From positions 76,551 through 140,550 of the forward strand of contig CP129473.1 in the NCBI GenBank assembly GCA_030583745.1: a DNA stretch of 64,000 nucleotides, given 5' to 3'. Position 1 is the first letter of the stretch; every line of letters begins with the position of its first letter. The DNA comes from Minisyncoccota bacterium (lineage in GTDB: Bacteria; Patescibacteriota; Minisyncoccia; Phycocordibacterales; BOKC01). Below are positions 51,920-61,148 of the stretch, piece after piece. The translations under genes and the position numbers were made by a program. A model generated the notes under the pieces. The model saw nothing but the letters and a program-made list of their open reading frames with translations. It was not told where the DNA came from and did no database searches.

Positions 51920-53221
51920 ATGAAAGATTTTCTTAAAAAAACCATTGTTCATCTTATTACTTTTGAATCTAAGCTGATAATCAAAAAATATCAGCCGAAG
52001 ATTGTTGCTATCACCGGCAGTGTCGGCAAAACCGGCACCAAAGATGCAGTTCACGCTCTTTTTTCTAAATTGTTCTATGCCGAAAAAAGTCCAAAAAGTT
52101 TTAACAGCGAAGTTGGGATTCCACTTTCAATTATCGGTGGCCAAAAAAGTGGGTGGAGAAATCCGCTATCTTGGCTTAAGGTTGTTTTGGACGGCTTATT
52201 TTTAATTATTTTACCAAATCATTATCCGAGGTGGCTAATTCTCGAGGTTGGGGCTGACAGGCCGGGAGACATAGAGGAAATTTCAAATTGGCTGAAAACT
52301 GACGTTGCGATCTTCACCAGAATGAGCGAAGTGCCGGTTCACGTTGAGTTTTTTGATTCACCGCAATCAGTCTTAAAAGAAAAAATGTTTTTGTTAAAAT
52401 CTCTTAGGTCGGAGCAGGGCGTTGCAGTTTACAATTACGATGATGAAATTATAAGAAGGGAGATTGAGGACAGAAAAGAATTGACCAAGTTGTCTTATGG
52501 TTTTGACAAAAAAGCCAGAGTCTCTGCTTCAAACTATGCAATTATTTATGATAGAAAAACTGGTTTTCCTTCGGGTATAAATTTCAAAATTAATTTTGAT
52601 GGTTCAAGTGTACCAGCCACGATTTACGACACAGTTGGCCGTCAGCAAGTTTATGCTGTCTTGGCCGGGGTTACGGCCATTTTGTCTCAAGGTGGTAATC
52701 CAGTAAAAGCAATTGAAGGTCTTCTTGATTATAGAAGTCAGCCGGGCCGAATGAAGATTTTAGAAGGTGTAAAAAATTCTCTTATTATTGACGATAGCTA
52801 CAATTCTTCTCCGGTTGCCCTGTTTGAATCGCTTGATACTTTGAAATCTATCAAGTGCGCTGGAAGAAAAATTGTAATTTTGGGCGATATGATGGAGATA
52901 GGACGCTATTCAATTGACGAACATAAAAAAGCCGGAGCTTTAGTGGCCGAGTTTGCCGATTTTATTTTTACTGTTGGTGTTCGAGCAAAATGCATCAATG
53001 ATGGCGCTTTAGAAAGGGGGTTTTCGCCTGAAAAAATTTTTAATTTTGGCGATTCCAGAGAAGCCGGAAAACAAGTGGAAATTATGGTTCAGCCAGGCGA
53101 CATCGTCTTAGTAAAAGGTTCACAATCAGCTAGAATGGAGCGGGCAGTTGAAGAAATCATGAATGATCCGATGAAAAAAGAAGAACTTTTGGTAAGGCAA
53201 GAACAAAGCTGGCGTTTCTGA
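51920..53221 (+). CDS. murF: Mur ligase, probably UDP-MurNAc-pentapeptide synthetase MurF
   Basis: The P-loop 'ITGSVGKTGTKD' and Mur ligase middle and C-terminal domains are present. The 433-aa size and its position after ftsI also fit. Confidence 0.7.
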   Translation: MKDFLKKTIVHLITFESKLIIKKYQPKIVAITGSVGKTGTKDAVHALFSKLFYAEKSPKSFNSEVGIPLSIIGGQKSGWRNPLSWLKVVLDGLFLIILPNHYPRWLILEVGADRPGDIEEISNWLKTDVAIFTRMSEVPVHVEFFDSPQSVLKEKMFLLKSLRSEQGVAVYNYDDEIIRREIEDRKELTKLSYGFDKKARVSASNYAIIYDRKTGFPSGINFKINFDGSSVPATIYDTVGRQQVYAVLAGVTAILSQGGNPVKAIEGLLDYRSQPGRMKILEGVKNSLIIDDSYNSSPVALFESLDTLKSIKCAGRKIVILGDMMEIGRYSIDEHKKAGALVAEFADFIFTVGVRAKCINDGALERGFSPEKIFNFGDSREAGKQVEIMVQPGDIVLVKGSQSARMERAVEEIMNDPMKKEELLVRQEQSWRF

Positions 53222-53359
53222 TAAAAATTTTTGTTTAAGATGTGGTTTGCTAGTTGGCAAAGAGAGAAAAAGAGAAGGTTACTTTTTCATTCCCTCGCCA
53301 TACAGCGCGCCTTCGGCGCGCCCAGATTTTGCGCTTACTTCCGACCAAGTTTCTGAATG

Positions 53360-53603
53360 TGACGATATTATAGCCTTTGCTCGAACCTATTTCGAGTCAA
53401 AGACCGACTGACTTCGCACGCGCGGAGCGCGTGGTGGCTTGGAACTACATCGTACGCTCCGATCGCGTGGTGATGCCAACTCATGCTGCCAGCGCCTCGA
53501 CAAGCTCGGCGCTCCGCCCTCGCCCCGTTTCCGCTCTCCATGCTTTTTCTTTTTTCGCGGGGGGATTTTTTTAAAAATTGAATGGGCGGAAAACGGGGCT
53601 CGG
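53360..53603 (+). repeat. inverted repeat IR244 left copy
   Basis: It is 100% identical to the reverse complement of 59256-59498. The track ORFs 53377..53574 (+) and 59284..59481 (-) give identical 65-aa translations. Confidence 0.9.
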
Positions 53604-53604
53604 T

Positions 53605-54260
53605 CGGGCTTCACCTAAAAGGGTGAAGCGTGGCGTCATTCGTTCAGTGGTGCCTCGGATCTATTCTATCAATTTTGCGTTCATGGCTAAAGGGACGGCA
53701 CCCTCGGCATCCACCTCGGGCTATTTCCGCTAGGGCTACGAGCGCCTAGATGCCTAGGAGTGTCGCTTTTCCTCGCAAGTGCGCCTTGCTAGGCGCTTGC
53801 TCGGGCGACACGCAGTTTGGGGGAAGGAAGGAATCCTTCCCCCAGCTTCGGGCTCCTCCTCGCAGTGGTCGTTCGGAGTGTACGGTGCCGTACAGATAAC
53901 AAGGTACGTCGTGAGTTTCTCTCTCGCTTTGACGTGCCTTCGGAGTCCGCCTTCGCACAACCCCCATCCTCGTTTTCAATATTTCTTTCGTGGTGTCGCT
54001 TCCGCTACGATACTTTGTTTTGCAATATAACGTCGGCGCTCGTCCTTTAGCCCTGGACGCTCCTAGCGGAAATAGCCCGAGGGCTCTGCCTTATGTGCTT
54101 GCCCCAGGCCGTGTTAGTACACGGCTCCCACCCGTGCGCGCACAAACCCCGCCCGCAAGCGGGCGGGACTCCCTGCAAAATGCAAGTGCCCTCGGGAGGA
54201 TTCGAACCTCCAAGATCGGGGTAGAGGCCCGACAGTTTATCCATTAGCTTACGAGGGCAA
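53605..54260. ncRNA. candidate large structured RNA (GC-rich, ORF-free, extensive self-complementarity); identity unknown
   Basis: The region is ~58% GC. The long-range pair 'cctcgggctatttccgctagg' (53722-53742) faces its reverse complement at 54061-54081. Many local hairpins are present (gggggaagg…ccttccccc, gtacggtgccgtac, cccgcccgcaagcgggcggg). The strand of transcription is uncertain. Confidence 0.35.
54185..54256 (-). other. tRNA-like element (T-arm GGAGG-UUCGAAU-CCUCC and 7-bp acceptor GCCCUCG/CGAGGGC; irregular D/anticodon arms; no CCA)
   Basis: On the minus strand it reads 'gccctcgtaagctaatggataaactgtcgggcctctaccccgatcttggaggttcgaatcctcccgagggca'. The anticodon stem 'ucggg/cccga' has loop 'ccucuac' (C at position 33). 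The D-arm is poorly paired, so it is likely a pseudo-tRNA or a structural mimic. Confidence 0.4.
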
Positions 54261-54345
54261 AGAGAAAGAAGCGCATAAATGCGCTGGGGGAATTCTTTAT
54301 CTTCTGTGCCTCGTATTAAACATTACTGTTTACATTAACATTTTT

Positions 54346-54373
54346 TTGAAAAAATAAAAACAAGAGTTATAAT
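54346..54373 (+). promoter_or_regulatory. sigma-70 promoter (TTGAAA-16-TATAAT)
   Basis: It lies upstream of a ~170-nt GC-rich leader that precedes the YjzC-like ORF. Confidence 0.5.
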
Positions 54374-54544
54374 TCAACAATTGAAGTCCTTTGAAATGCT
54401 GGCGGGATAGTCGGAGCGCCCTTTTCTGCATCTTAGGGGATCATCTCACCTCCTCCCCCCTGGTCAGTGCTTTTTCGAGCATTGACTCGGGGGCGCGTAG
54501 CAGGTCGAGCCCCTGGATTACCAGAATTAAGCGAAACGATTGTT

Positions 54545-54706
54545 ATGACTAAAGTCAAAACAGGCGGTACTGCTAAAAAATCTGGACAGTATAGAGTCGA
54601 GGGTACAAAAACCCTCGAGATTACATTGTCTAGAGGCGATCGCGTTCCACCTCATGGAGGAAAGGCGAGAACCTTTGTGCTCGTTGATAAGACGAAACAC
54701 AAATAG
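54545..54706 (+). CDS. YjzC-like small protein (53 aa)
   Basis: 'VKTGGTAKKSGQYRVEGTKTLEITLSRGDRVPPHGGKARTFVLVDK' follows the YjzC pattern (K.G..AP..G.Y.e.G…i.L..GD.fP…..W). The start is at the internal ATG and the RBS is weak. Confidence 0.4.
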   Translation: MTKVKTGGTAKKSGQYRVEGTKTLEITLSRGDRVPPHGGKARTFVLVDKTKHK

Positions 54707-54750
54707 TAAGTAACCGCTAAACTTTTCCTGCCAGCATTTCAGAGGATTTT

Positions 54751-56238
54751 CTATTTTATTCTCAAAAATGGTTTGCTAAGGGTTAAGCGATAATCTCCAA
54801 AAAACTCTTTTATCGTCTTTCTGGTCCTGTGTTTTTCAATGTATTGATCTAAATAAGTGAGTAGTTCTTTTTCAACCTCGACGAAGCTGTCTGGGCAAAT
54901 AGATTTGTAATGATTGACCCAACCGCCAGCAAAAGATTTGTATGCCTTAATTACTTCTCCAAAATCAAATTTTTTGACGATACCAACATTTACAATTTCG
55001 CGCTCAAAAGTGTTTTTAAATTCCTGGATTGCCTCCTTGGGAATGAAAAGACTATTTTTCGAAATACCAACCCCAAGGAATTCGAAACTATTTCCATCAA
55101 TATTTAATAACTGTGTTTTACTACCAACCTCAAGTGGGTGTAATTTCAATTTAAGTTTCTCGCTTCCTGATTTAATTAACTCATATACATTATTTGCTTG
55201 ACCTTCACTTTTTGAAAGAACGATCATGTCATCAAGGTATCTGAAACCCTTGCACCCTTTTACTTTGTTAGGAATTTTATCAAGTGGTAAGGCGTAATAA
55301 CTTGAGAGAAATGGTGAGTATGAAAGACCCTGCGGAATGCCAGTGGTCTTTAGTTTAAGGTGTCCAAATGTTCCATGAAAATCTGAATCTGCCTCAATTT
55401 TATTTTCTATGGATACCTTTATTAATCGAAATAATCTGCGTTGATCTTTGCCTCTGAATTTTTTACTCAGTTGCTTTAATAAAATACTTCTATCAATGGA
55501 TGAGAAAAAATCTTTAAAATCTAATTTTAAAATATAGCGAGCCTCGCCATTTTTTAAAGCTCTCTGTATTTCATTGAGTATTCGCTTACATTCACTGGTG
55601 TCTTTTTCTTTCTTAATACCAAGTCCAAGTGCACCGTATTCCTCTAAGGCTGGTTTTAGAATATTACAAACTTTTGGAAATACGGCTGATAAAACGATCC
55701 GGTCTTTTGAAGAAGGGATAAGAAGGGGTCTATATTTTCCGTTAGATTTTCTTATTTTCAAACCAGAATATGGTAAGAAAGAAAATCGCCGTAATTCTTT
55801 CGAGTAGAATTCGGCTACACTTATCTTCTTTATGTATTTCCCTAGATCATTTAGCTCCCGCTCCTCTATTCCTGAAAATCTTTTTAAATCTGAAAAGTTT
55901 TTGCGAAATACTTTACGTCTCAAACTCTTAAATGCACTTGCGATTTGTTCTTGAGTTAAAAGCAGTTGCAGGTTCACATAATTTTCTATGATAGACGACC
56001 TCACTGGACTCGAACCAGTGCATGTTCCGAAAGATCGTGCTCCCTTAAGGGTAGAGGCTACTGCCGAAGCGATAGCCTCACCATTAAGGGTACTACTTTT
56101 CAGTCCGTTCGTCAACCGAAGTTGATAGACTTTCCTAATCGGTAGGTGGCGACCTGCAAGAGTAAAGTTTATGGCGTGCATAATTCTTTTCCCTCGCAGG
56201 AAGTCGTGAGCCGAAGCCCACTGTAAAATATTATACAT
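54751..56238 (-). CDS. group-II-intron-like reverse transcriptase with maturase/X (thumb) domain, not embedded in an intron ribozyme (G2L-type)
   Basis: RT motifs 1-7 are present: 'NGKYRPLLIPSSKDRIV', 'LKLDFKDFFSSI', 'GIPQGLSYSPFL', 'FRYLDDMIVL' and 'LHPLEV…'. The X-domain 'AGGWVNHYKS' is also present. No D1-D3 or D5/D6 intron RNA is found; flanks are occupied by other genes. The first ~85 codons of the track ORF overlap structured RNA (see findings). Confidence 0.8.
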   Translation of the reverse strand: MYNILQWASAHDFLRGKRIMHAINFTLAGRHLPIRKVYQLRLTNGLKSSTLNGEAIASAVASTLKGARSFGTCTGSSPVRSSIIENYVNLQLLLTQEQIASAFKSLRRKVFRKNFSDLKRFSGIEERELNDLGKYIKKISVAEFYSKELRRFSFLPYSGLKIRKSNGKYRPLLIPSSKDRIVLSAVFPKVCNILKPALEEYGALGLGIKKEKDTSECKRILNEIQRALKNGEARYILKLDFKDFFSSIDRSILLKQLSKKFRGKDQRRLFRLIKVSIENKIEADSDFHGTFGHLKLKTTGIPQGLSYSPFLSSYYALPLDKIPNKVKGCKGFRYLDDMIVLSKSEGQANNVYELIKSGSEKLKLKLHPLEVGSKTQLLNIDGNSFEFLGVGISKNSLFIPKEAIQEFKNTFEREIVNVGIVKKFDFGEVIKAYKSFAGGWVNHYKSICPDSFVEVEKELLTYLDQYIEKHRTRKTIKEFFGDYRLTLSKPFLRIK

Positions 56239-56303
56239 TAACCGGCTTATTCAGCAATAGAAAATCTGTGGATAACTCGCTGTAGTTTTCGGTATTCTTT
56301 CGG

Positions 56304-56325
56304 TTATAATATGCTTATATTATAA
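56304..56325. promoter_or_regulatory. palindrome TTATAATAT-gctt-ATATTATAA in the divergent RT / LexA-MTase promoter region
   Basis: It has 9-bp inverted arms and lies 20 bp upstream of the LexA-MTase ATG. It is a candidate operator. Confidence 0.4.
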
Positions 56326-56345
56326 CATATAACTTTTTATAAATT

Positions 56346-57914
56346 ATGAGATCTCTTACCATAAGACAAAAGCAAATATTCGATTTCATTGACTCCTATA
56401 TAGCGAAGAAAGGCATTTCTCCCACAATAGACGAGATAAGGAAAAAGTTTAAATTAAAATCAGTTTCTACTATTCATCAGCATATAAACGCTTTAGTTGA
56501 AAAAGGTTATTTAGAAAAAGATGAAAAATCCGTCCGAGGTCTTAAAATAAAAGGAGAAACTGACTCTATAAGAATTCCCGTTGTTGGAATGATTGCCGCC
56601 GGACAGCCGATTGAAGCAATAGAGAATATTGAGAGACATATCGGTGTAAGCCGAAGCGTAGTGAAAAATAGCGATGATCATTATGCCTTGCGAGTAACTG
56701 GAGAGAGTATGATTGATGAAGGTATTTTTGATGGAGATATTGTTATCATAAAAAAGCAGTCAGTGGCTGAAAACGGACAAACTGTAGTAGCAATAATCGA
56801 TGACAATGAGGCTACGTTGAAAAAAATATATAGGGAGAAAAACAGATTTAAACTTGAACCGGCAAATCAGAGCATGCTCCCTTTTTATCGCAAAGAGGTG
56901 GAAGTGCGAGGTGTCGTTGTGCAGGTTATCAGAAATATTGATAATCGTCCCGAGGATAAAAAAATTCAGAAAAATGGCTATAAGACCGTTGACTTGTTTG
57001 CTGGTGTAGGAGGAATACGTCTCGGATTTGAAAAAGTCGGTTTTGAAACTGTGTTTGCAAATGATTTTGAACCGCAATGCAAGGACACTTATGATCTTAA
57101 TTTTGACACCTCAAAGCTCGTCGTAGAAGACATAAGAAAAATTGGCATCGAAGATTTGCCTGAATTTGATTTTCTCCTCGGGGGTTTCCCGTGCCAGGCG
57201 TTCTCTATTGCCGGATATAGGCAGGGATTTGGAGATGAGAAAGGTCGCGGAAATTTATTTTTTGACATAGCAAGAATGTTAGAAGCAAGAAAGCCGACAG
57301 GATTTCTTTTAGAGAATGTAAAAAATCTAATGGGCCATGACAAAGGCAGGACTTTCAAAATTATTAAAGAAACTCTTGAGGGTCTAGGTTATCATGTCCA
57401 TGCAAAGGTTCTCAACACTATGGAGTACGGAAACATTCCGCAAAATCGCGAGAGAATTTATATTGTTGGATTTAGGGACAAAAAGCATTTTGAAAGGTTT
57501 GAATATCCTAAGCCCGTTAAACTAGCTGTAAGCGTTACCGACATGCTAGAGGACGAGGTGGATAAAAAATATTATTACAATGGAAAACCCCTATTCCCAA
57601 GGTTAAAAGACGATGTTAAAAAAGAAGGAACGGTTTATCAGTGGAGGAGGAAATATGTCCGGGAAAACAAAAGCGGAGTATGCCCAACGCTTACCGCAAA
57701 TATGGGAACCGGCGGGCATAATGTTCCGATTATCAAAGATAAAAAAGGAATAAGAAAACTAACCCCTTTAGAGTGTTTTAGAATTCAGGGATTTCCAAAA
57801 CACTACAAGCTTCCAGAATTGGCTGACTCTGCACTGTACAAGCAGGCAGGAAATTCGGTTTCTGTGCCAGTAATAGAAGCCGTGGCAAAAGAGATGCTGA
57901 ACGCCGTTAGTTAG
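56346..57914 (+). CDS. LexA repressor (HTH + S24 peptidase) fused in-frame to DNA (cytosine-5)-methyltransferase
   Basis: Residues 1-~200 align with E. coli LexA. This includes the cleavage-site 'IAAGQP', catalytic Ser 'TGESM' and Lys 'TLKKIY', and 'GVVVQVIRNI'. Residues ~205-522 carry C5-MTase motif I 'FAGVGGIRLGF', motif IV 'GGFPCQAFS' and motif VI 'LLENVKNL'. Confidence 0.85.
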   Translation: MRSLTIRQKQIFDFIDSYIAKKGISPTIDEIRKKFKLKSVSTIHQHINALVEKGYLEKDEKSVRGLKIKGETDSIRIPVVGMIAAGQPIEAIENIERHIGVSRSVVKNSDDHYALRVTGESMIDEGIFDGDIVIIKKQSVAENGQTVVAIIDDNEATLKKIYREKNRFKLEPANQSMLPFYRKEVEVRGVVVQVIRNIDNRPEDKKIQKNGYKTVDLFAGVGGIRLGFEKVGFETVFANDFEPQCKDTYDLNFDTSKLVVEDIRKIGIEDLPEFDFLLGGFPCQAFSIAGYRQGFGDEKGRGNLFFDIARMLEARKPTGFLLENVKNLMGHDKGRTFKIIKETLEGLGYHVHAKVLNTMEYGNIPQNRERIYIVGFRDKKHFERFEYPKPVKLAVSVTDMLEDEVDKKYYYNGKPLFPRLKDDVKKEGTVYQWRRKYVRENKSGVCPTLTANMGTGGHNVPIIKDKKGIRKLTPLECFRIQGFPKHYKLPELADSALYKQAGNSVSVPVIEAVAKEMLNAVS

Positions 57915-58956
57915 TTGATATCTTATCAAACAGATCCACAAGATCTTGCGTGGAGTCATTGCCAAATTTCTCAAGCGTGTATTTTAGCGCAATGTTCTCA
58001 TTCCATTTAGAGCTCCGGTCAAATTTATTGAGGTTGATGACAATGTTACCTTTTTGAACAGGAATTCCACTAATTCTAATATCATCTGTAGAATGTATAT
58101 ACAAAGAGCCTTTGTTTTTCTTTAGAATTGTTATCTCTGTTTTGTTTTCACTTTCAATAGCGAACGGAAGACAAACATATCCTTTATCGTATGTATAGGT
58201 AAACCTATTGTTTCCGTCCAAAACCATTTTCTCTTTAAGATTTGCCCCGCGAGGATCTTTATTTTCAGCGCCGGCAAAATAGTACGGGCTCACATCCTTT
58301 TTGCAAAGCGTGAAATTATTTTGAACCTCGCCTTTTGTGTAAATGCCAATTAAGCGCATTGTGCCAACTTTTGCGGTTTTAGAAACAGTAGAATGAGGAA
58401 TAATTTGTTTGTCTTTGTCGCTTTCAATAAATTCGTCGCTCATTTTAAGCTCCTCAAAATATTTGTCAGCAAATGTTTCTTCTTCAAACAGCGATGTCAA
58501 ATAATCTCCCTCCAGATCGGACTCAATAAATGCATAATAATCATCAATCATTTGCGGTTCCCGTACCCCAAGTAACGCCTGATCTTTCCGCACAACTTTA
58601 ACCTCGATCCTCGGCATGCCATCAATATTTGTCCAGGTTCCGTTATTGTATTTTACAAAAGGAATAGTCTTTCCGTCGGAAGTTTGAAGTCCGAGAATAT
58701 CAGGCGCGTTCTTATCAGAGTCGTTAGCATATATAAAATAATCTGAAATAACTTTATATTTGTTATCCTCCAGCAATTTTTCAAAGATAACTGTTTCTGC
58801 GATTTTATTGAACCACCTTTCAATATAACCGCCGATTAAATCTCTTTTAGCAGAAGTGCCCTGGCGATGAAGCGGGTCGCCTTTAAACTTCATTAGAATG
58901 AAGTAAACAATTTTTCTAAGATCATCTTTTGTTATTTCTATTTCCGGGTATTTCAT
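57907..58956 (-). CDS. putative type II restriction endonuclease (PD-(D/E)xK)
   Basis: It converges on and overlaps the MTase by 8 bp. It lies directly downstream of a C-protein gene. A candidate 'PD…(E)VK' motif is 'APDILGL…RIEVKVV'. Confidence 0.55.
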   Translation of the reverse strand: MKYPEIEITKDDLRKIVYFILMKFKGDPLHRQGTSAKRDLIGGYIERWFNKIAETVIFEKLLEDNKYKVISDYFIYANDSDKNAPDILGLQTSDGKTIPFVKYNNGTWTNIDGMPRIEVKVVRKDQALLGVREPQMIDDYYAFIESDLEGDYLTSLFEEETFADKYFEELKMSDEFIESDKDKQIIPHSTVSKTAKVGTMRLIGIYTKGEVQNNFTLCKKDVSPYYFAGAENKDPRGANLKEKMVLDGNNRFTYTYDKGYVCLPFAIESENKTEITILKKNKGSLYIHSTDDIRISGIPVQKGNIVINLNKFDRSSKWNENIALKYTLEKFGNDSTQDLVDLFDKISTN

Positions 58957-58958
58957 AA

Positions 58959-59171
58959 TTATTTGAATCGCAAAAGCTCATCAGGATCCACATCCAGAGC
59001 GTCTGATATCTTTTTTATATTCTCAACAGAAACATTGCGCTCGCCTCGTTCAATATCGCTCATGTATGTTCTGTGCAGTTTCGCTTTTGTAGCGAGTTTT
59101 TCCTGCGAAATACCCGCCTCCAAGCGAAGTTCTTTAATTTTCTGTCCTAATTGTTTCTTAATATTTGACAT
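58959..59171 (-). CDS. controller (C) protein, XRE-family HTH
   Basis: The 70-aa product contains 'LGQKIKELRLEAGISQEKLATKAKLHRTYMSDIERGERNVS'. The stop abuts the downstream REase start. A C-box lies upstream. Confidence 0.75.
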   Translation of the reverse strand: MSNIKKQLGQKIKELRLEAGISQEKLATKAKLHRTYMSDIERGERNVSVENIKKISDALDVDPDELLRFK

Positions 59172-59228
59172 GCAAAGTCTGGTAACTTATTGACTACATC
59201 ATATCTTTTTGAGTAAAATAGGGCTACA

Positions 59229-59249
59229 GACTATAAGTGACGTATAGTC
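59229..59249. promoter_or_regulatory. C-box-like palindrome GACTATA-N7-TATAGTC
   Basis: It lies ~58 bp upstream of the C-protein start and matches the GACT…AGTC C-box consensus. Confidence 0.55.
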
Positions 59250-59255
59250 TAAGCC

Positions 59256-59498
59256 CGAGCCCCGTTTTCCGCCCATTCAATTTTTAAAAAAATCCCCCCG
59301 CGAAAAAAGAAAAAGCATGGAGAGCGGAAACGGGGCGAGGGCGGAGCGCCGAGCTTGTCGAGGCGCTGGCAGCATGAGTTGGCATCACCACGCGATCGGA
59401 GCGTACGATGTAGTTCCAAGCCACCACGCGCTCCGCGCGTGCGAAGTCAGTCGGTCTTTGACTCGAAATAGGTTCGAGCAAAGGCTATAATATCGTCA
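59256..59498 (-). repeat. inverted repeat IR244 right copy
   Basis: It is the perfect reverse complement of 53360-53603. Confidence 0.9.
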
Positions 59499-59578
59499 CA
59501 ATTTAGAACTTTTCCCAATGCGCGTCGCTCCGCGACGAATTCGGACGGAACTGGCGCGCCGAAGCGCGCGGATTTGTC
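59496..59578 (+). repeat. inverted repeat IR83 left copy
   Basis: It is the perfect reverse complement of 60994-61076. It contains the GCGCGC-UUCG-GCGCGC hairpin and lies in the recombinase promoter region. Confidence 0.9.
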
Positions 59579-59604
59579 TCTTGTTTCGTATCTAAAAAAA
59601 ATCT

Positions 59605-61092
59605 ATGTCCAAACCAAAATATTTTCTTTACGCTCGCAAATCGACGGAAGATGATGACAAGCAGGTCATGTCTATCGAGGCTCAACTTTTTGAATTGCGA
59701 GAGTTTGCACGTAAAGAAAATCTTGAAATTGTTGAGACATTTCAAGAGTCGAAAAGCGCAAAGACTCCGGGCAGGCCTCTGTTCAACAAGATGATGGCGA
59801 AGATAGAGGAAATGGAGAATGTCGGCATTCTTGCGTGGCATCCGGATCGTCTCGCGAGAAATAGCGTGGACGGCGGTCGCATCATCTATCTTGTTGACCA
59901 GAAGAAAATCACGTCTTTGCGCTTTCCGACATTTTGGTTTGAACCCACCCCGCAGGGGCTCTTTATGTTGCAAGTGGCGTTCGGTCAATCGAAGTATTAC
60001 TCCGACAACTTGGTGGAGAACACCAAGCGCGGGATGCGCCAAAAAGTGCGGCGAGGCGAGTGGCTCACAAAAGCGCCGTTCGGGTACGTGAACAATCCGA
60101 AGACGAGGAATATCGAACCGCACCCGACTCATTCCAAAATCATCGTCCGCGCTTTTGAGGAGTATGCGAAAAAATCGCACACGCTGAAATCACTCGCCGA
60201 TTTTTTGGCGCTTCACGGAGTAAGTACTTCCAAAGGTACGCCACTTGGCAAAGCTTCCATCAAACGAATGCTGACCAACAGGGCATATTTGGGATTTGTG
60301 AAGCATAAGGAGGAATGGTTTGACGGAAGCTTTGCGCCAATTCTTTCCCCGAAATTGTTTGAAGCCGTGCAAAAGGTATTAGCGACAAGAGAACGCCCGC
60401 GCAAAACAAAGACCGGCCACAATTTTCCTTTCGTTGGACTTTTTCGTTGCGGAGAGTGCGGGAGCATGATCACTGCGCAGTGGGCGACGGGGAAATCAGG
60501 AGGACGGTATCGGTACTATCGGTGCACGAAAAAGAAAGGAAATTGTGACCAAGGGTATATGCGCGAGGAATCTCTTGTCGCAGACGTAAAGGAACGGCTC
60601 CAAACAATTTCGCTTTGCGATGAGGATACTGATTATATGCTCAAGTGCGTTCTGCAATTCGAGCAAGAGGAAAACCGCTCATCGCAAAGCCGCGTTCAAA
60701 ATCTTTCTTTCAAACTCAAAGCAAGCGAGGAGAAGCTTGACCGTCTTGTCTCGGCCTTTATTGATGGTGACATTCCAAAGGAAATTTATCTCGCCAAGAA
60801 GGACAAGCTGATGCGGGAATCACTTGCTTTGCGGGAACAGCGGAAAGATTTTGAACGCGAGGGAAAGAATTGGGTCGAACCCCTACGGGAGTGGATTTTA
60901 GATACGAAACAAGCCAATTTTTTGAGCTCATCCGCTGATTTTCACAAAATCAGCTCCTTCGTCAAAAAAGTTGGAACGAACCCTACGGTTCGTGACAAAT
61001 CCGCGCGCTTCGGCGCGCCAGTTCCGTCCGAATTCGTCGCGGAGCGACGCGCATTGGGAAAAGTTCTAAATTGTGACCCTATCGGGATTTGA
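59605..61092 (+). CDS. large serine recombinase (resolvase/integrase)
   Basis: The N-terminal resolvase domain 'YARKSTEDDDKQVMSIEAQ' carries the catalytic Ser. A recombinase domain and zinc ribbon 'CGECGSM…YYRCTKKKGNC' follow, with a C-terminal coiled coil. Confidence 0.9.
   Translation: MSKPKYFLYARKSTEDDDKQVMSIEAQLFELREFARKENLEIVETFQESKSAKTPGRPLFNKMMAKIEEMENVGILAWHPDRLARNSVDGGRIIYLVDQKKITSLRFPTFWFEPTPQGLFMLQVAFGQSKYYSDNLVENTKRGMRQKVRRGEWLTKAPFGYVNNPKTRNIEPHPTHSKIIVRAFEEYAKKSHTLKSLADFLALHGVSTSKGTPLGKASIKRMLTNRAYLGFVKHKEEWFDGSFAPILSPKLFEAVQKVLATRERPRKTKTGHNFPFVGLFRCGECGSMITAQWATGKSGGRYRYYRCTKKKGNCDQGYMREESLVADVKERLQTISLCDEDTDYMLKCVLQFEQEENRSSQSRVQNLSFKLKASEEKLDRLVSAFIDGDIPKEIYLAKKDKLMRESLALREQRKDFEREGKNWVEPLREWILDTKQANFLSSSADFHKISSFVKKVGTNPTVRDKSARFGAPVPSEFVAERRALGKVLNCDPIGI
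60994..61076 (-). repeat. inverted repeat IR83 right copy
   Basis: It overlaps the last ~30 codons of the recombinase and ends 3 nt inside the tRNA-Glu 3' end. Confidence 0.9.
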
Positions 61093-61148
61093 ACCCGAGT
61101 TTTCGCCTTGAGAAGGCGACGTCCTAGACCAGACTAGACGATAGGGCC
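61074..61148 (-). tRNA. tRNA-Glu (CUC)
   Basis: On the minus strand it reads GGCCCUA-UC-GUC…GAC-G-UCGCC-UUCUCAA-GGCGA-AAAC-UCGGG-UUCAAAU-CCCGA-UAGGGUC-A. Acceptor stem is 7 bp (one G·U), D-stem 3 bp. Anticodon loop is UUCUCAA, giving anticodon CUC. No CCA is encoded. Confidence 0.75.

Follow-up and report, generated by a model that had tools for sequence, protein, structure and literature searches.

A tRNA-Glu island of Minisyncoccota whose serine recombinase gene is bracketed by inverted repeats with putative attachment sites

The stretch of DNA analyzed here, hereafter the window, comprises 64,000 nucleotides (nt) of contig CP129473.1 from a Minisyncoccota bacterium (assembly GCA_030583745.1, positions 76,551 to 140,550 of the forward strand). 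It encodes a large serine recombinase (LSR), whose gene is enclosed by a perfect inverted repeat and converges with a tRNA-Glu(CUC) gene. Judged from its sequence, the region from 53364 to 61077 is a small integrative element that is moved by the LSR and is inserted at the 3' end of this tRNA gene (Table 1). The island is flanked by ordinary chromosomal genes (MurF-like, YqeY and RmuC), and the tRNA-Glu gene remains intact (61.8 bits against Rfam).

The enzyme can be assigned to the large serine recombinase family by every sequence feature that was considered. It has a resolvase catalytic domain (PF00239, E = 3e-24, residues 7-153), a recombinase domain (PF07508, E = 5e-13) and a zinc ribbon (PF13408, E = 6e-12). 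The R-K-S motif (YARKS, with Ser13 in the window LSR, in a Y-x-R-x-S context) is invariant among 40 homologues, as are four cysteines (C283, C286, C308 and C315 in the numbering of alignment A1). An AlphaFold model of homologue P0018 has a coiled-coil insertion in the zinc ribbon, formed by helices 340-387 and 393-421, with predicted local distance difference test (pLDDT) scores of 73-89. The window LSR is identical to database protein P0001 on a 691,769-bp Candidatus Paceibacterota contig, and the exact protein was found on that contig only; a separate exact-protein lookup gave no entry. Recombination between attP and attB attachment sites by this enzyme is indicated indirectly by a core of 4-14 nt that is common to the three junctions described below.

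The inverted repeat that frames the LSR gene is exactly 84 nt long and 100% identical when the window is compared with itself by blastn, and a repeat finder lengthens the pair to 89 nt at 98% identity (59490-59578 and 60994-61082). An earlier note on this DNA, made from the sequence alone, had described the pair as 83 bp starting at 59496; the pair itself stands, and its size and start were each one base off. A perfect 84-nt inverted repeat cannot have arisen by chance within 64 kb. The note placed the left copy (IR-L) in the promoter region of the LSR gene, and it does lie between a promoter-like site, presumed from its sequence to be the LSR promoter, and the ATG at 59605. The right copy (IR-R), which the note drew over the last ~30 codons, covers the last 33 by our count, and its overlap with the tRNA gene's 3' end is as described (4-5 nt, TTGTGAC/CCTATC). 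A second perfect inverted repeat of 18 nt, which the note had missed, lies inside the first (IR2' and IR2), and its position means that the left arm equals the right arm minus an 80-nt coding segment. The left arm also includes a terminator-like GC hairpin followed by a T-rich tract (59554-59569).

Another inverted repeat that had gone unnoticed, 254 nt long and 99.2% identical, abuts IR-L with a 14-nt overlap. We call the gene-end arm X, its inverted copy upstream of the gene X', the 254-nt far-side block A (A' for the inverted copy) and the outer flank B; attP then corresponds to X-core-A. The recombinase gene lies between the two X arms and the cargo between the two A arms. A 6-nt core, TGTGAC, also absent from the note, occurs three times, on the plus strand in S1 and S3 and as the reverse complement in S2 (59495-59500). 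Each copy has distinct partners, S1 being B-core-A, S2 X-core-A and S3 X-core-tRNA-Glu, a pattern in which S1 corresponds to attL, S3 to attR and S2 to an internal, inverted and complete attP. This complete inverted attP (IR-L plus A', 59255-59578) lies between the presumed LSR promoter and the start codon, and IR-L forms both the P arm of S2 and the 5' untranslated region (5' UTR) of the LSR gene. The distal block A holds a mirrored promoter-like site on the minus strand (53395-53367, by promoter scan).

The outer arm of attL has a history of its own. It consists of the last 79 nt of a gene from another LSR lineage (X_old), 97-99% identical to the X arms of four relatives (loci L065, L072, L080 and L063), and an open reading frame (ORF) at 53247-53411 runs through it, reading FIPSPYSAPSARPDFALTSDQVSEC up to the junction and DDIIAFARTYFESKTD beyond it. 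The match to the L065, L072 and L080 lineage indicates that an earlier element held the same tRNA-Glu gene and that the present island entered its junction, the resident attR. The X_old remnant survives beside murF.

Table 1. Features of the island and its tRNA target in the window (positions count from the first nucleotide of the window)
Feature	Position	Strand	Basis or remark
X_old, last 79 nt of the gene of another LSR lineage	53285..53363	+	outer (B) arm of attL
Block A, distal copy	53351..53603	+	island-side arm of attL; 99.2% reverse-complementary to 59255-59508
attL	53358-53603		core plus block A
Core copy 1, TGTGAC (attL crossover region, S1)	53358..53363	+	three-way comparison of S1, S2 and S3
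GC-rich non-coding element	53685..54143	.	left end of cargo; 69-93% identical copies beside distal A in relatives
tRNA-Arg(UCU) gene inside cargo	54186..54258	-	ARAGORN and Rfam
Reverse transcriptase	54751..56238	-	Pfam RVT_1; best PADLOC match defence-associated RT_UG17, E = 3.9e-39
LexA-C5 cytosine methyltransferase fusion, 522 aa	56346..57914	+	Pfam; PADLOC MTase_II
349-aa protein	57907..58956	-	no Pfam or PADLOC match
XRE-type helix-turn-helix (HTH) / restriction-modification control protein	58959..59171	-	Pfam HTH_3; PADLOC Control_protein, E = 2e-27; divergent from LSR
Block A', proximal inverted copy	59255..59508	-	with IR-L makes complete inverted attP (S2)
Promoter-like site TCGAAA-17-TATAAT	59463..59491	+	directly upstream of IR-L; 10/12 consensus positions
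IR-L (X')	59495..59578	+	perfect inverted copy of the final 84 nt before the tRNA junction
IR2'	59580..59597	+	18-nt inverted copy of 60896-60913; 8 nt upstream of LSR start codon
LSR, 495 aa	59605..61092	+	Pfam Resolvase, Recombinase, Zn_ribbon_recom; short-tail integrated form ending KVLNCD/PIGI and stop
IR2	60896..60913	+	coding copy, encodes ILDTKQ
80-nt coding segment	60914..60993	+	in right arm, absent from left arm; same gap in relatives
IR-R (X)	60994..61077	+	last codons of LSR; P arm joined to tRNA = attR (S3); core 61072-61077
tRNA-Glu(CUC), integration target	61073/61074..61148	-	Rfam 61.8 bits and ARAGORN; IR-R supplies last 4-5 nt

Relatives of the LSR are found in more than 579 loci of species-representative genomes and more than 589 metagenome loci by tblastn, both numbers being lower bounds, and 6747 database proteins match at E ≤ 1e-30. 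The best 80 relatives in each of the two sets (genomes and metagenomes) have 65-89% protein identity. By their labels, the genome records belong nearly all to Patescibacteria, the candidate phyla radiation (CPR), with a few other bin labels (Bdellovibrionales, Elulimicrobium). A scan of viral contigs with the LSR returned no relatives, and for that reason a reading of the island as a prophage was dropped.

The design of the island is shared by these relatives. The inverted repeat brackets the LSR gene at the same positions in 109 of the 116 loci, from independent assemblies, in which both regions are assembled. Its arms have a median length of 132 nt and a median identity of 99.2%, and are perfect in 32 loci; between loci, the X arms are at least 80% alike in just 2.5% of pairs. 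Arms that are nearly identical within loci and dissimilar between them point to concerted evolution within each element. The short arm in the window is explained by the shorter C-terminal region of the LSR in its lineage, and the arm of L001, whose LSR is 89% identical, measures 83 nt. IR2 and the 80-nt gap recur, IR2 being kept, and partly co-varying, in about two thirds of the relatives. The same boundaries and the same gap are present in two complete chromosomes (CP060229.1 and OY970382.1).

In 126 loci the 3' end of the LSR gene converges with the 3' end of a tRNA or tmRNA gene, the targets being tRNA-Glu (48), tRNA-Ser (34), tRNA-Arg (16), tRNA-Ala (13), tmRNA (4) and single cases of seven others. 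Where enough upstream flank is assembled, most loci have a further inverted repeat, 150-330 nt long with 98-100% identity, whose proximal copy begins at the outer edge of IR-L; the cargo between its copies measures 1.1-9 kb. The logic of S1, S2 and S3 applies to the window and to 14 of 15 relatives, all three junctions being extractable in the 14, and is unclear in L008. The shared core of 4-14 nt, which falls on the tRNA discriminator and the last acceptor bases, measures 4-11 nt in the 12 of the 14 relatives whose B flank is unrelated to X. By this comparison of S1 and S3, the window and the 14 relatives have the two core-sharing junctions of a site-specific tRNA island.

Traits of insertion sequences (IS) or transposons, including IS607 serine transposases, are lacking: the element is present once in the window and its outer ends are att-type junctions with a tRNA gene. 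Element copies that share one genome are divergent paralogues at different tRNAs, unlike IS or transposon copies; two or three such elements share a genome in CP060229.1 (L006 and L031), in CAZNQQ01 (L011, L028 and L054) and in the genome of L053.

Because X is the end of the LSR gene, the reading frame can be followed across each junction. Read across X-core-A, the frame enters a conserved tail, (D/E)(I/L)(I/L)xFARTxFE, with a stop 13-20 codons on, in ~60 of 68 loci. The tail peptide in the window is DIIAFARTYFESKTD, encoded at S1 by 53364-53408 on the plus strand with a stop codon at 53409-53411, and a silent tail-coding copy lies at S2 on the minus strand (59494-59447 including the stop, tail codons to 59450). 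Integrated genes run instead into antisense tRNA sequence, which adds PIGI and a stop in the window and DPTGNRTP and further residues at other tRNA-Glu sites. The window LSR can consequently be written in a short form ending in NCDPIGI and a long form, read across attP, ending in NCDDIIAFARTYFESKTD, and comparison of the two frames indicates that integration in the window replaces the conserved tail with four antisense-tRNA codons. The note had remarked neither on this exchange nor on the complete inverted attP. The long tail is carried by 14 of the 120 best database homologues, all of them on contigs of 1.6-7 kb.

The tail has the marks of a coding sequence. Its codon-position pattern is NTN NTN ... 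GCN ... TTY, and its conservation at single positions fits translation: T is fixed at the second position of two hydrophobic codons, and the Ala, Thr and Phe codons vary more freely at the third. We also considered whether its conservation might stem solely from a motif on the opposite strand, either a -10/-35 promoter or a binding site for a recombinase, but the per-position pattern favors coding; the near-constant block TTTGCNCGAAC may in addition be a protein-binding motif. AlphaFold modelled the catalytic, recombinase and zinc-ribbon domains and the coiled coil of a long-tail homologue, with pLDDT <50 for the last 50 residues. A short helix over FARTHF is the sole modelled feature in these 50 residues, and the tail accordingly looks, in this prediction, like a short motif in a flexible C-terminus.

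Evidence for alternative states of the element comes from relatives and from short-read assemblies, and from it we infer function below. The key case is an element at tRNA-Arg, with an LSR 74% identical to that of the window, in which all forms share a 100% identical X'-LSR-X segment. The two arms differ at one base (T in X', C in X), and this single-nucleotide polymorphism (SNP), which lies 118 nt from the arm's outer edge, allows the forms to be phased. Two contigs, L086 and L087, have the normal integrated form, A'/X'(T)-LSR-X(C)/tRNA-Arg(-). Two others, the 4.0-kb MEGAHIT k141 contigs L167 and L168, are circular permutations of it with the order X'(T)-LSR-X(C)/A-cargo-A'. All but 65 nt of the second repeat copy is present in them, and L168 opens with 7 nt of A', so that A stands on both sides of the LSR. 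The fifth contig, L169 (1916 nt), has the order tRNA-Arg(+)/X'(T)-LSR-X(C)/A, in which the cassette is exactly inverted. The contig begins 141 nt before the SNP, which would be the expected branch point of a k = 141 assembly graph if normal and flipped molecules coexist. The normal form contains no link of the C allele to A or of the T allele to the tRNA, and mis-threading by the assembler should therefore not have produced these contigs.

A second lineage is also found in the flipped form, and from its sequence unambiguously so. Contig L171 has the order PGI gene, tRNA-Ser(+), X', long-tail LSR, X and A, and its arms are only 86.7% identical. In L121 and L126 the cassette is flipped as well, with tRNA-Ser directly upstream of X'. 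Further circle-like contigs are L161, L163 and L166, the last with a 399-nt perfect inverted repeat around the LSR. The cargo, too, is found in both orientations (L086 versus L087, L167 versus L168, and also L131 and L113), although this could be the assembler's choice across identical 240-nt repeats. Four contigs in which the LSR gene reads through X into A and an XRE gene (L146, L162, L172 and L173), like the cargo flip between L086 and L087, reflect either inversion or the path chosen by the assembler and are suggestive only.

Two other contigs deserve mention. L067 seemed to carry a long-tail LSR 1.4 kb from tRNA-Glu and was discounted, as an NN scaffold join falls exactly at the end of X. 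In L170, which belongs to the tRNA-Arg element, the left arm contains the usually missing 80 nt and a 119-nt perfect inverted repeat including IR2 results (1-119 versus 1449-1567); this may be a gene-conversion or fold-back variant.

The anatomy of the island, its conservation, the concerted evolution of the arms, the frame of the tail and the normal, circle-like and flipped forms in relatives, all as they appear in the sequences, can be joined in one account, to which we give somewhat better than even chances. It combines a gene-internal attP, an inverted spare attP, tail exchange and a cassette flip by recombination between the X arms. As read from the sequence, the attP lies inside the 3' end of the LSR gene, and integration leaves X joined to the tRNA (attR) and A at the far end (attL). 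The long-tail protein, made from the circle, would be the native and integration-competent enzyme, and after integration through the gene-internal attP the enzyme would lack the tail and the insertion would be stable. The recombinase cassette would be flipped by exchange between IR-L and IR-R, which would rejoin the gene to the tail encoded by A and place it downstream of the tRNA. The flip could be mediated by the LSR at the shared core or by homologous (RecA) exchange over 84-145 identical bases, and RecA exchange between the arms would also explain their homogenization. Excision (attL x attR, that is S1 x S3) would restore the tail on a circle with a ~340-400-bp inverted repeat, and a circle that integrated through the second attP would likewise restore it. 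Under this account the tail may control the activity or directionality of the enzyme, and the inversion may act as a switch. A single-stranded dumbbell or hairpin intermediate was rejected by reasoning only, since a serine recombinase cutting the stem would leave hairpin-capped chromosome ends.

A further step, which we put forward tentatively and consider possible but doubtful, is that the flip is a purpose-built arming switch with which the element would control its own directionality without a recombination directionality factor (RDF). Integration through the internal attP would strip the C-terminal motif and so disarm the integrase, and the inverted spare attP would be a silent cassette. 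A rare flip would re-fuse the motif, put the gene under read-through from the tRNA and re-arm it for excision or movement. Inversion of the recombinase gene itself would thereby decide between a locked and a mobile island.

Several observations weigh against this account and its extension. The normal orientation is found in at least 95% of loci and in every large or complete contig examined, which implies that flipping is rare or usually selected against. No alternative or flipped state was found for the window's own lineage, in which the exact protein is known from one contig. The earlier note had suggested an invertible switch, and the suggestion holds in part, as flipped cassettes exist in relatives (the SNP-phased L169, L171 with its diverged arms, L121 and L126). 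Short-read assembly across repeats produced most of the flipped or circle-like contigs, and only L167, L168, L169 and L171 escape this ambiguity; the SNP argument in turn depends on our understanding of k = 141 de Bruijn assembly. About 50 bp suffice for a recombination site, so that site function alone does not explain a further ~100 nt of X, the 18-nt IR2 and ~200 nt of A. The pLDDT values below 50 for the X-encoded region and the tail lend no structural support to a role of the tail, and among the genes considered an RDF was neither identified nor excluded.

An alternative that we regard as unlikely is that the repeats are regulatory only. IR-L and A' would form an operator and 5' UTR module, through which the LSR represses itself, as resolvase does at res, with attenuation by the hairpin, and inversions would be accidental. 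The placement of the promoter-like -10 box 4 nt from the core, which would put the start of transcription at the beginning of IR-L, agrees with this, as do the terminator-like hairpin with its T-rich tract, the location of the site between the LSR and a divergent XRE or control gene in ~55 loci, and the strong predominance of the normal orientation. Binding, however, needs ~50 bp, whereas 84-145 nt of X and ~250 nt of A are kept near-identical; moreover, a silent tail-coding sequence is kept in S2, and flipped and circle-like forms do occur.

Rather unlikely, in our judgment, is a role of the repeats resembling that in the 2-micron plasmid. The repeat would serve an excised circle with two inverted attP sites, parted by the LSR gene on one side and the cargo on the other, whose flip-flop isomers would allow copy-number amplification or integration in either orientation, and the integrated repeat would be left over from integration through one of the two sites. 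The circle-like permutations and the occurrence of the cargo in both orientations could be read in this way, and a flipped integrated form is the expected product of integration via the second attP. Nevertheless, no replication gene was recognized in any cargo, some cargos measure only 1.1-1.2 kb, no closed circular contig was recovered among the circle-like contigs, and the cargo orientation in short-read contigs is open to the assembly effect across the 240-nt repeat noted above.

Pairing in the RNA offers a third possibility, which we judge improbable. The 5' UTR of the LSR mRNA (IR-L plus IR2') would pair with the 3' coding end (IR2 to IR-R) in a panhandle controlling translation or stability, an arrangement suggested by the predicted start of transcription just upstream of IR-L and by IR2', which lies next to the start codon and in some loci (for example L010, L025, L029 and L035) has changed along with its coding partner. 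Yet G.U-compatible changes in the sense RNA are not in excess among the arm mismatches (55 versus 70, p = 0.21), half of the mismatches are transversions, IR-L alone folds no better than shuffled sequence (z = -0.8), and the A/A' repeat around the cargo would be left unexplained.

That the left arm is the footprint of serial integration (a decayed second LSR gene), as the earlier note had also suggested, or an assembly mis-join is hardly credible, and the sequences effectively refute it for the inverted repeat: although a genuine remnant of another LSR lineage does exist at the left end of the island (53285-53363) and the left arm lacks 80 nt of the right arm, the arm is inverted rather than direct, the far-end flank is mostly unrelated, identical boundaries and the same 80-nt gap recur in >100 independent assemblies, complete chromosomes included, and arms that are 97-100% identical where the LSRs differ by up to 35% are not what a decaying remnant, which would diverge, would leave.

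The island, read as carrying a gene-internal attP with an inverted spare copy, can be compared with several known systems. It resembles the LSRs of phages and elements such as phiC31, Bxb1, A118/LI, TP901-1 and SPbeta in its domains (resolvase, recombinase, and zinc ribbon with coiled coil), in the conversion of attP and attB into attL and attR with few shared core bases, and in a recombinase gene beside attP. Unlike these, the island has its attP inside the 3' end of the gene itself, so that integration alters the protein; it targets the 3' ends of tRNA and tmRNA genes, keeps a conserved second, inverted and complete attP upstream of the gene, and has no phage genes, no identified RDF and no relatives in viral contigs.

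Like the tyrosine-integrase islands catalogued by Islander and TIGER and the tycheposons, the family forms small cargo islands at tRNA or tmRNA 3' ends, where the tRNA is restored by the island and tandem or serial occupancy of one tRNA occurs. It differs in its serine enzyme, in a displaced tRNA fragment of 4-6 nt versus tens of nt, and in its nested inverted-repeat pair. According to the Islander paper of 2014, serine integrases were not known to target tDNA, and tRNA islands were exclusive to tyrosine integrases (PMC4383910).

The closest parallel to the tail exchange is the integrase of myxophage Mx8, with which the island shares an attP in the integrase coding sequence and replacement of the C-terminus upon integration. 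The target of Mx8 overlaps a tRNA gene. Mx8 Int is a tyrosine recombinase, in contrast to the island enzyme, which has serine recombinase domains only, and it has neither an inverted spare attP nor an inversion route back to the native C-terminus. In Mx8, attP lies within int, and integration makes a recombinant gene (intP to intX) with a new 3' end and an altered C-terminus (PMC6070905). According to that review, the change alters the site specificity of the integrase and acts as a molecular switch controlling prophage excision (PMC6070905).

As in the Hin, Gin, Cin and Pin systems, a serine recombinase gene lies in or beside a segment bounded by inverted repeats. Inversion by Gin, Cin and Pin swaps alternative 3' ends of a gene. 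In the island, by contrast, the alternative 3' ends lie outside the flipping segment and the switched gene is the recombinase itself; both orientations of the cassette are known from relatives only. The Hin and Gin invertases are ~190 aa long, carry an HTH at the C-terminus and use 26-bp sites together with an enhancer bound by Fis, while the island enzymes measure 495-525 aa and the arms 84-145 nt. A recent case of physiological inversion, in a cryptic prophage, is that of PinQ (PMC12529663).

With the 2-micron plasmid the island has in common two long, site-bearing inverted repeats that divide the element, with the recombinase gene on one side. In the FLP/FRT system of that plasmid, the recombination sites lie in two long inverted repeats that split the circle, the recombinase is encoded in one unique region, and two isomers exist. 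FLP is, however, a tyrosine recombinase, and its plasmid replicates autonomously and has REP genes, whereas no replication genes were recognized in the cargos of the islands, and the element is mostly integrated. A full-text literature search found no description of this architecture, which is not proof that none exists.

The family appears to be an undescribed, very large group of serine-integrase islands in Patescibacteria that target tRNA and tmRNA genes, with thousands of homologues, and it contradicts the older generalization that serine integrases avoid tDNA targets (PMC4383910). A gene-internal attP, a conserved tail removed by integration and an inverted spare attP permitting a flip back have not been reported in combination for serine integrases. 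Patescibacteria have tiny genomes, and their mobile elements are poorly known. Given that the cargos consist largely of defence and restriction-modification genes, the family is likely to be a vehicle by which CPR bacteria exchange defence systems. Should activity be governed by the tail, these enzymes would perform natural reversible serine-integrase reactions that are controlled by the tail and free of an RDF, which would be of practical interest for genome engineering. The arming switch, if real, would operate in thousands of elements, the main recognizable integrative elements of CPR bacteria.

The cargo of the island in the window begins with the GC-rich non-coding element. Copies of ~450 nt adjoin distal A in a subset of islands (L080:188-593, L065:3713-4116, L081:292-640 and L043:3691-4147, and also L145, L155, L152 and L037). 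A long-range closing helix of ~18 bp (CATTTCCGCTAGGGC with GCCCTAGCGGAAATG) and internal hairpins show compensatory changes, and the element is a candidate structured RNA, or else may be a small element with inverted repeats at its ends. Rfam at the gathering threshold found three tRNAs only in the whole window, and at an E-value threshold gave no match for block A, IR-L or the GC-rich element in 53200-54800 and 59150-59650. The island carries a tRNA-Arg(UCU) gene, and other members of the family have tRNA-Arg(UCU) as their target. Together with the GC-rich element, this tRNA gene neighbors the reverse transcriptase gene; in other loci the GC-rich element is not linked to a reverse transcriptase.

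The remaining cargo genes are suggestive of restriction-modification. In the fusion protein, a complete LexA (DNA-binding domain and S24 peptidase) is joined to the methylase in a single ORF; by its sequence this would be an unusual combination of an SOS-type regulator with a restriction-modification methylase. The adjacent 349-aa protein is, by position only, a candidate restriction endonuclease. An XRE-type gene lies divergently beside A' in ~55 relatives by tblastn. Within block A, a 76-nt module (53411-53486 and 59372-59447) is 87-94% identical across loci whose LSRs are ~70% identical. Upstream of the promoter-like site it contains a pair of CACCACGCG repeats 36 nt apart, and it may be an operator for the divergent XRE or control protein.

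Other observations concern assemblies and unusual loci. Among the contigs L001-L160, many stop 0-140 nt beyond the outer side of IR-L, or else at IR-R's inner edge; the ends outside IR-L are what would be expected if assemblies break in the A repeat, and the repeats appear to be a recurrent break point of CPR metagenome assemblies. L174, the contig of homologue P0018, is a rare exception to the general design, since its 193-nt upstream region shares no detectable inverted repeat with the 3' end of its long-tail LSR. At L053 (JBAXFJ010000001.1), where extra copies of the 76-nt module are found elsewhere, several A-type modules and a second LSR occur within 12 kb in an array-like arrangement.

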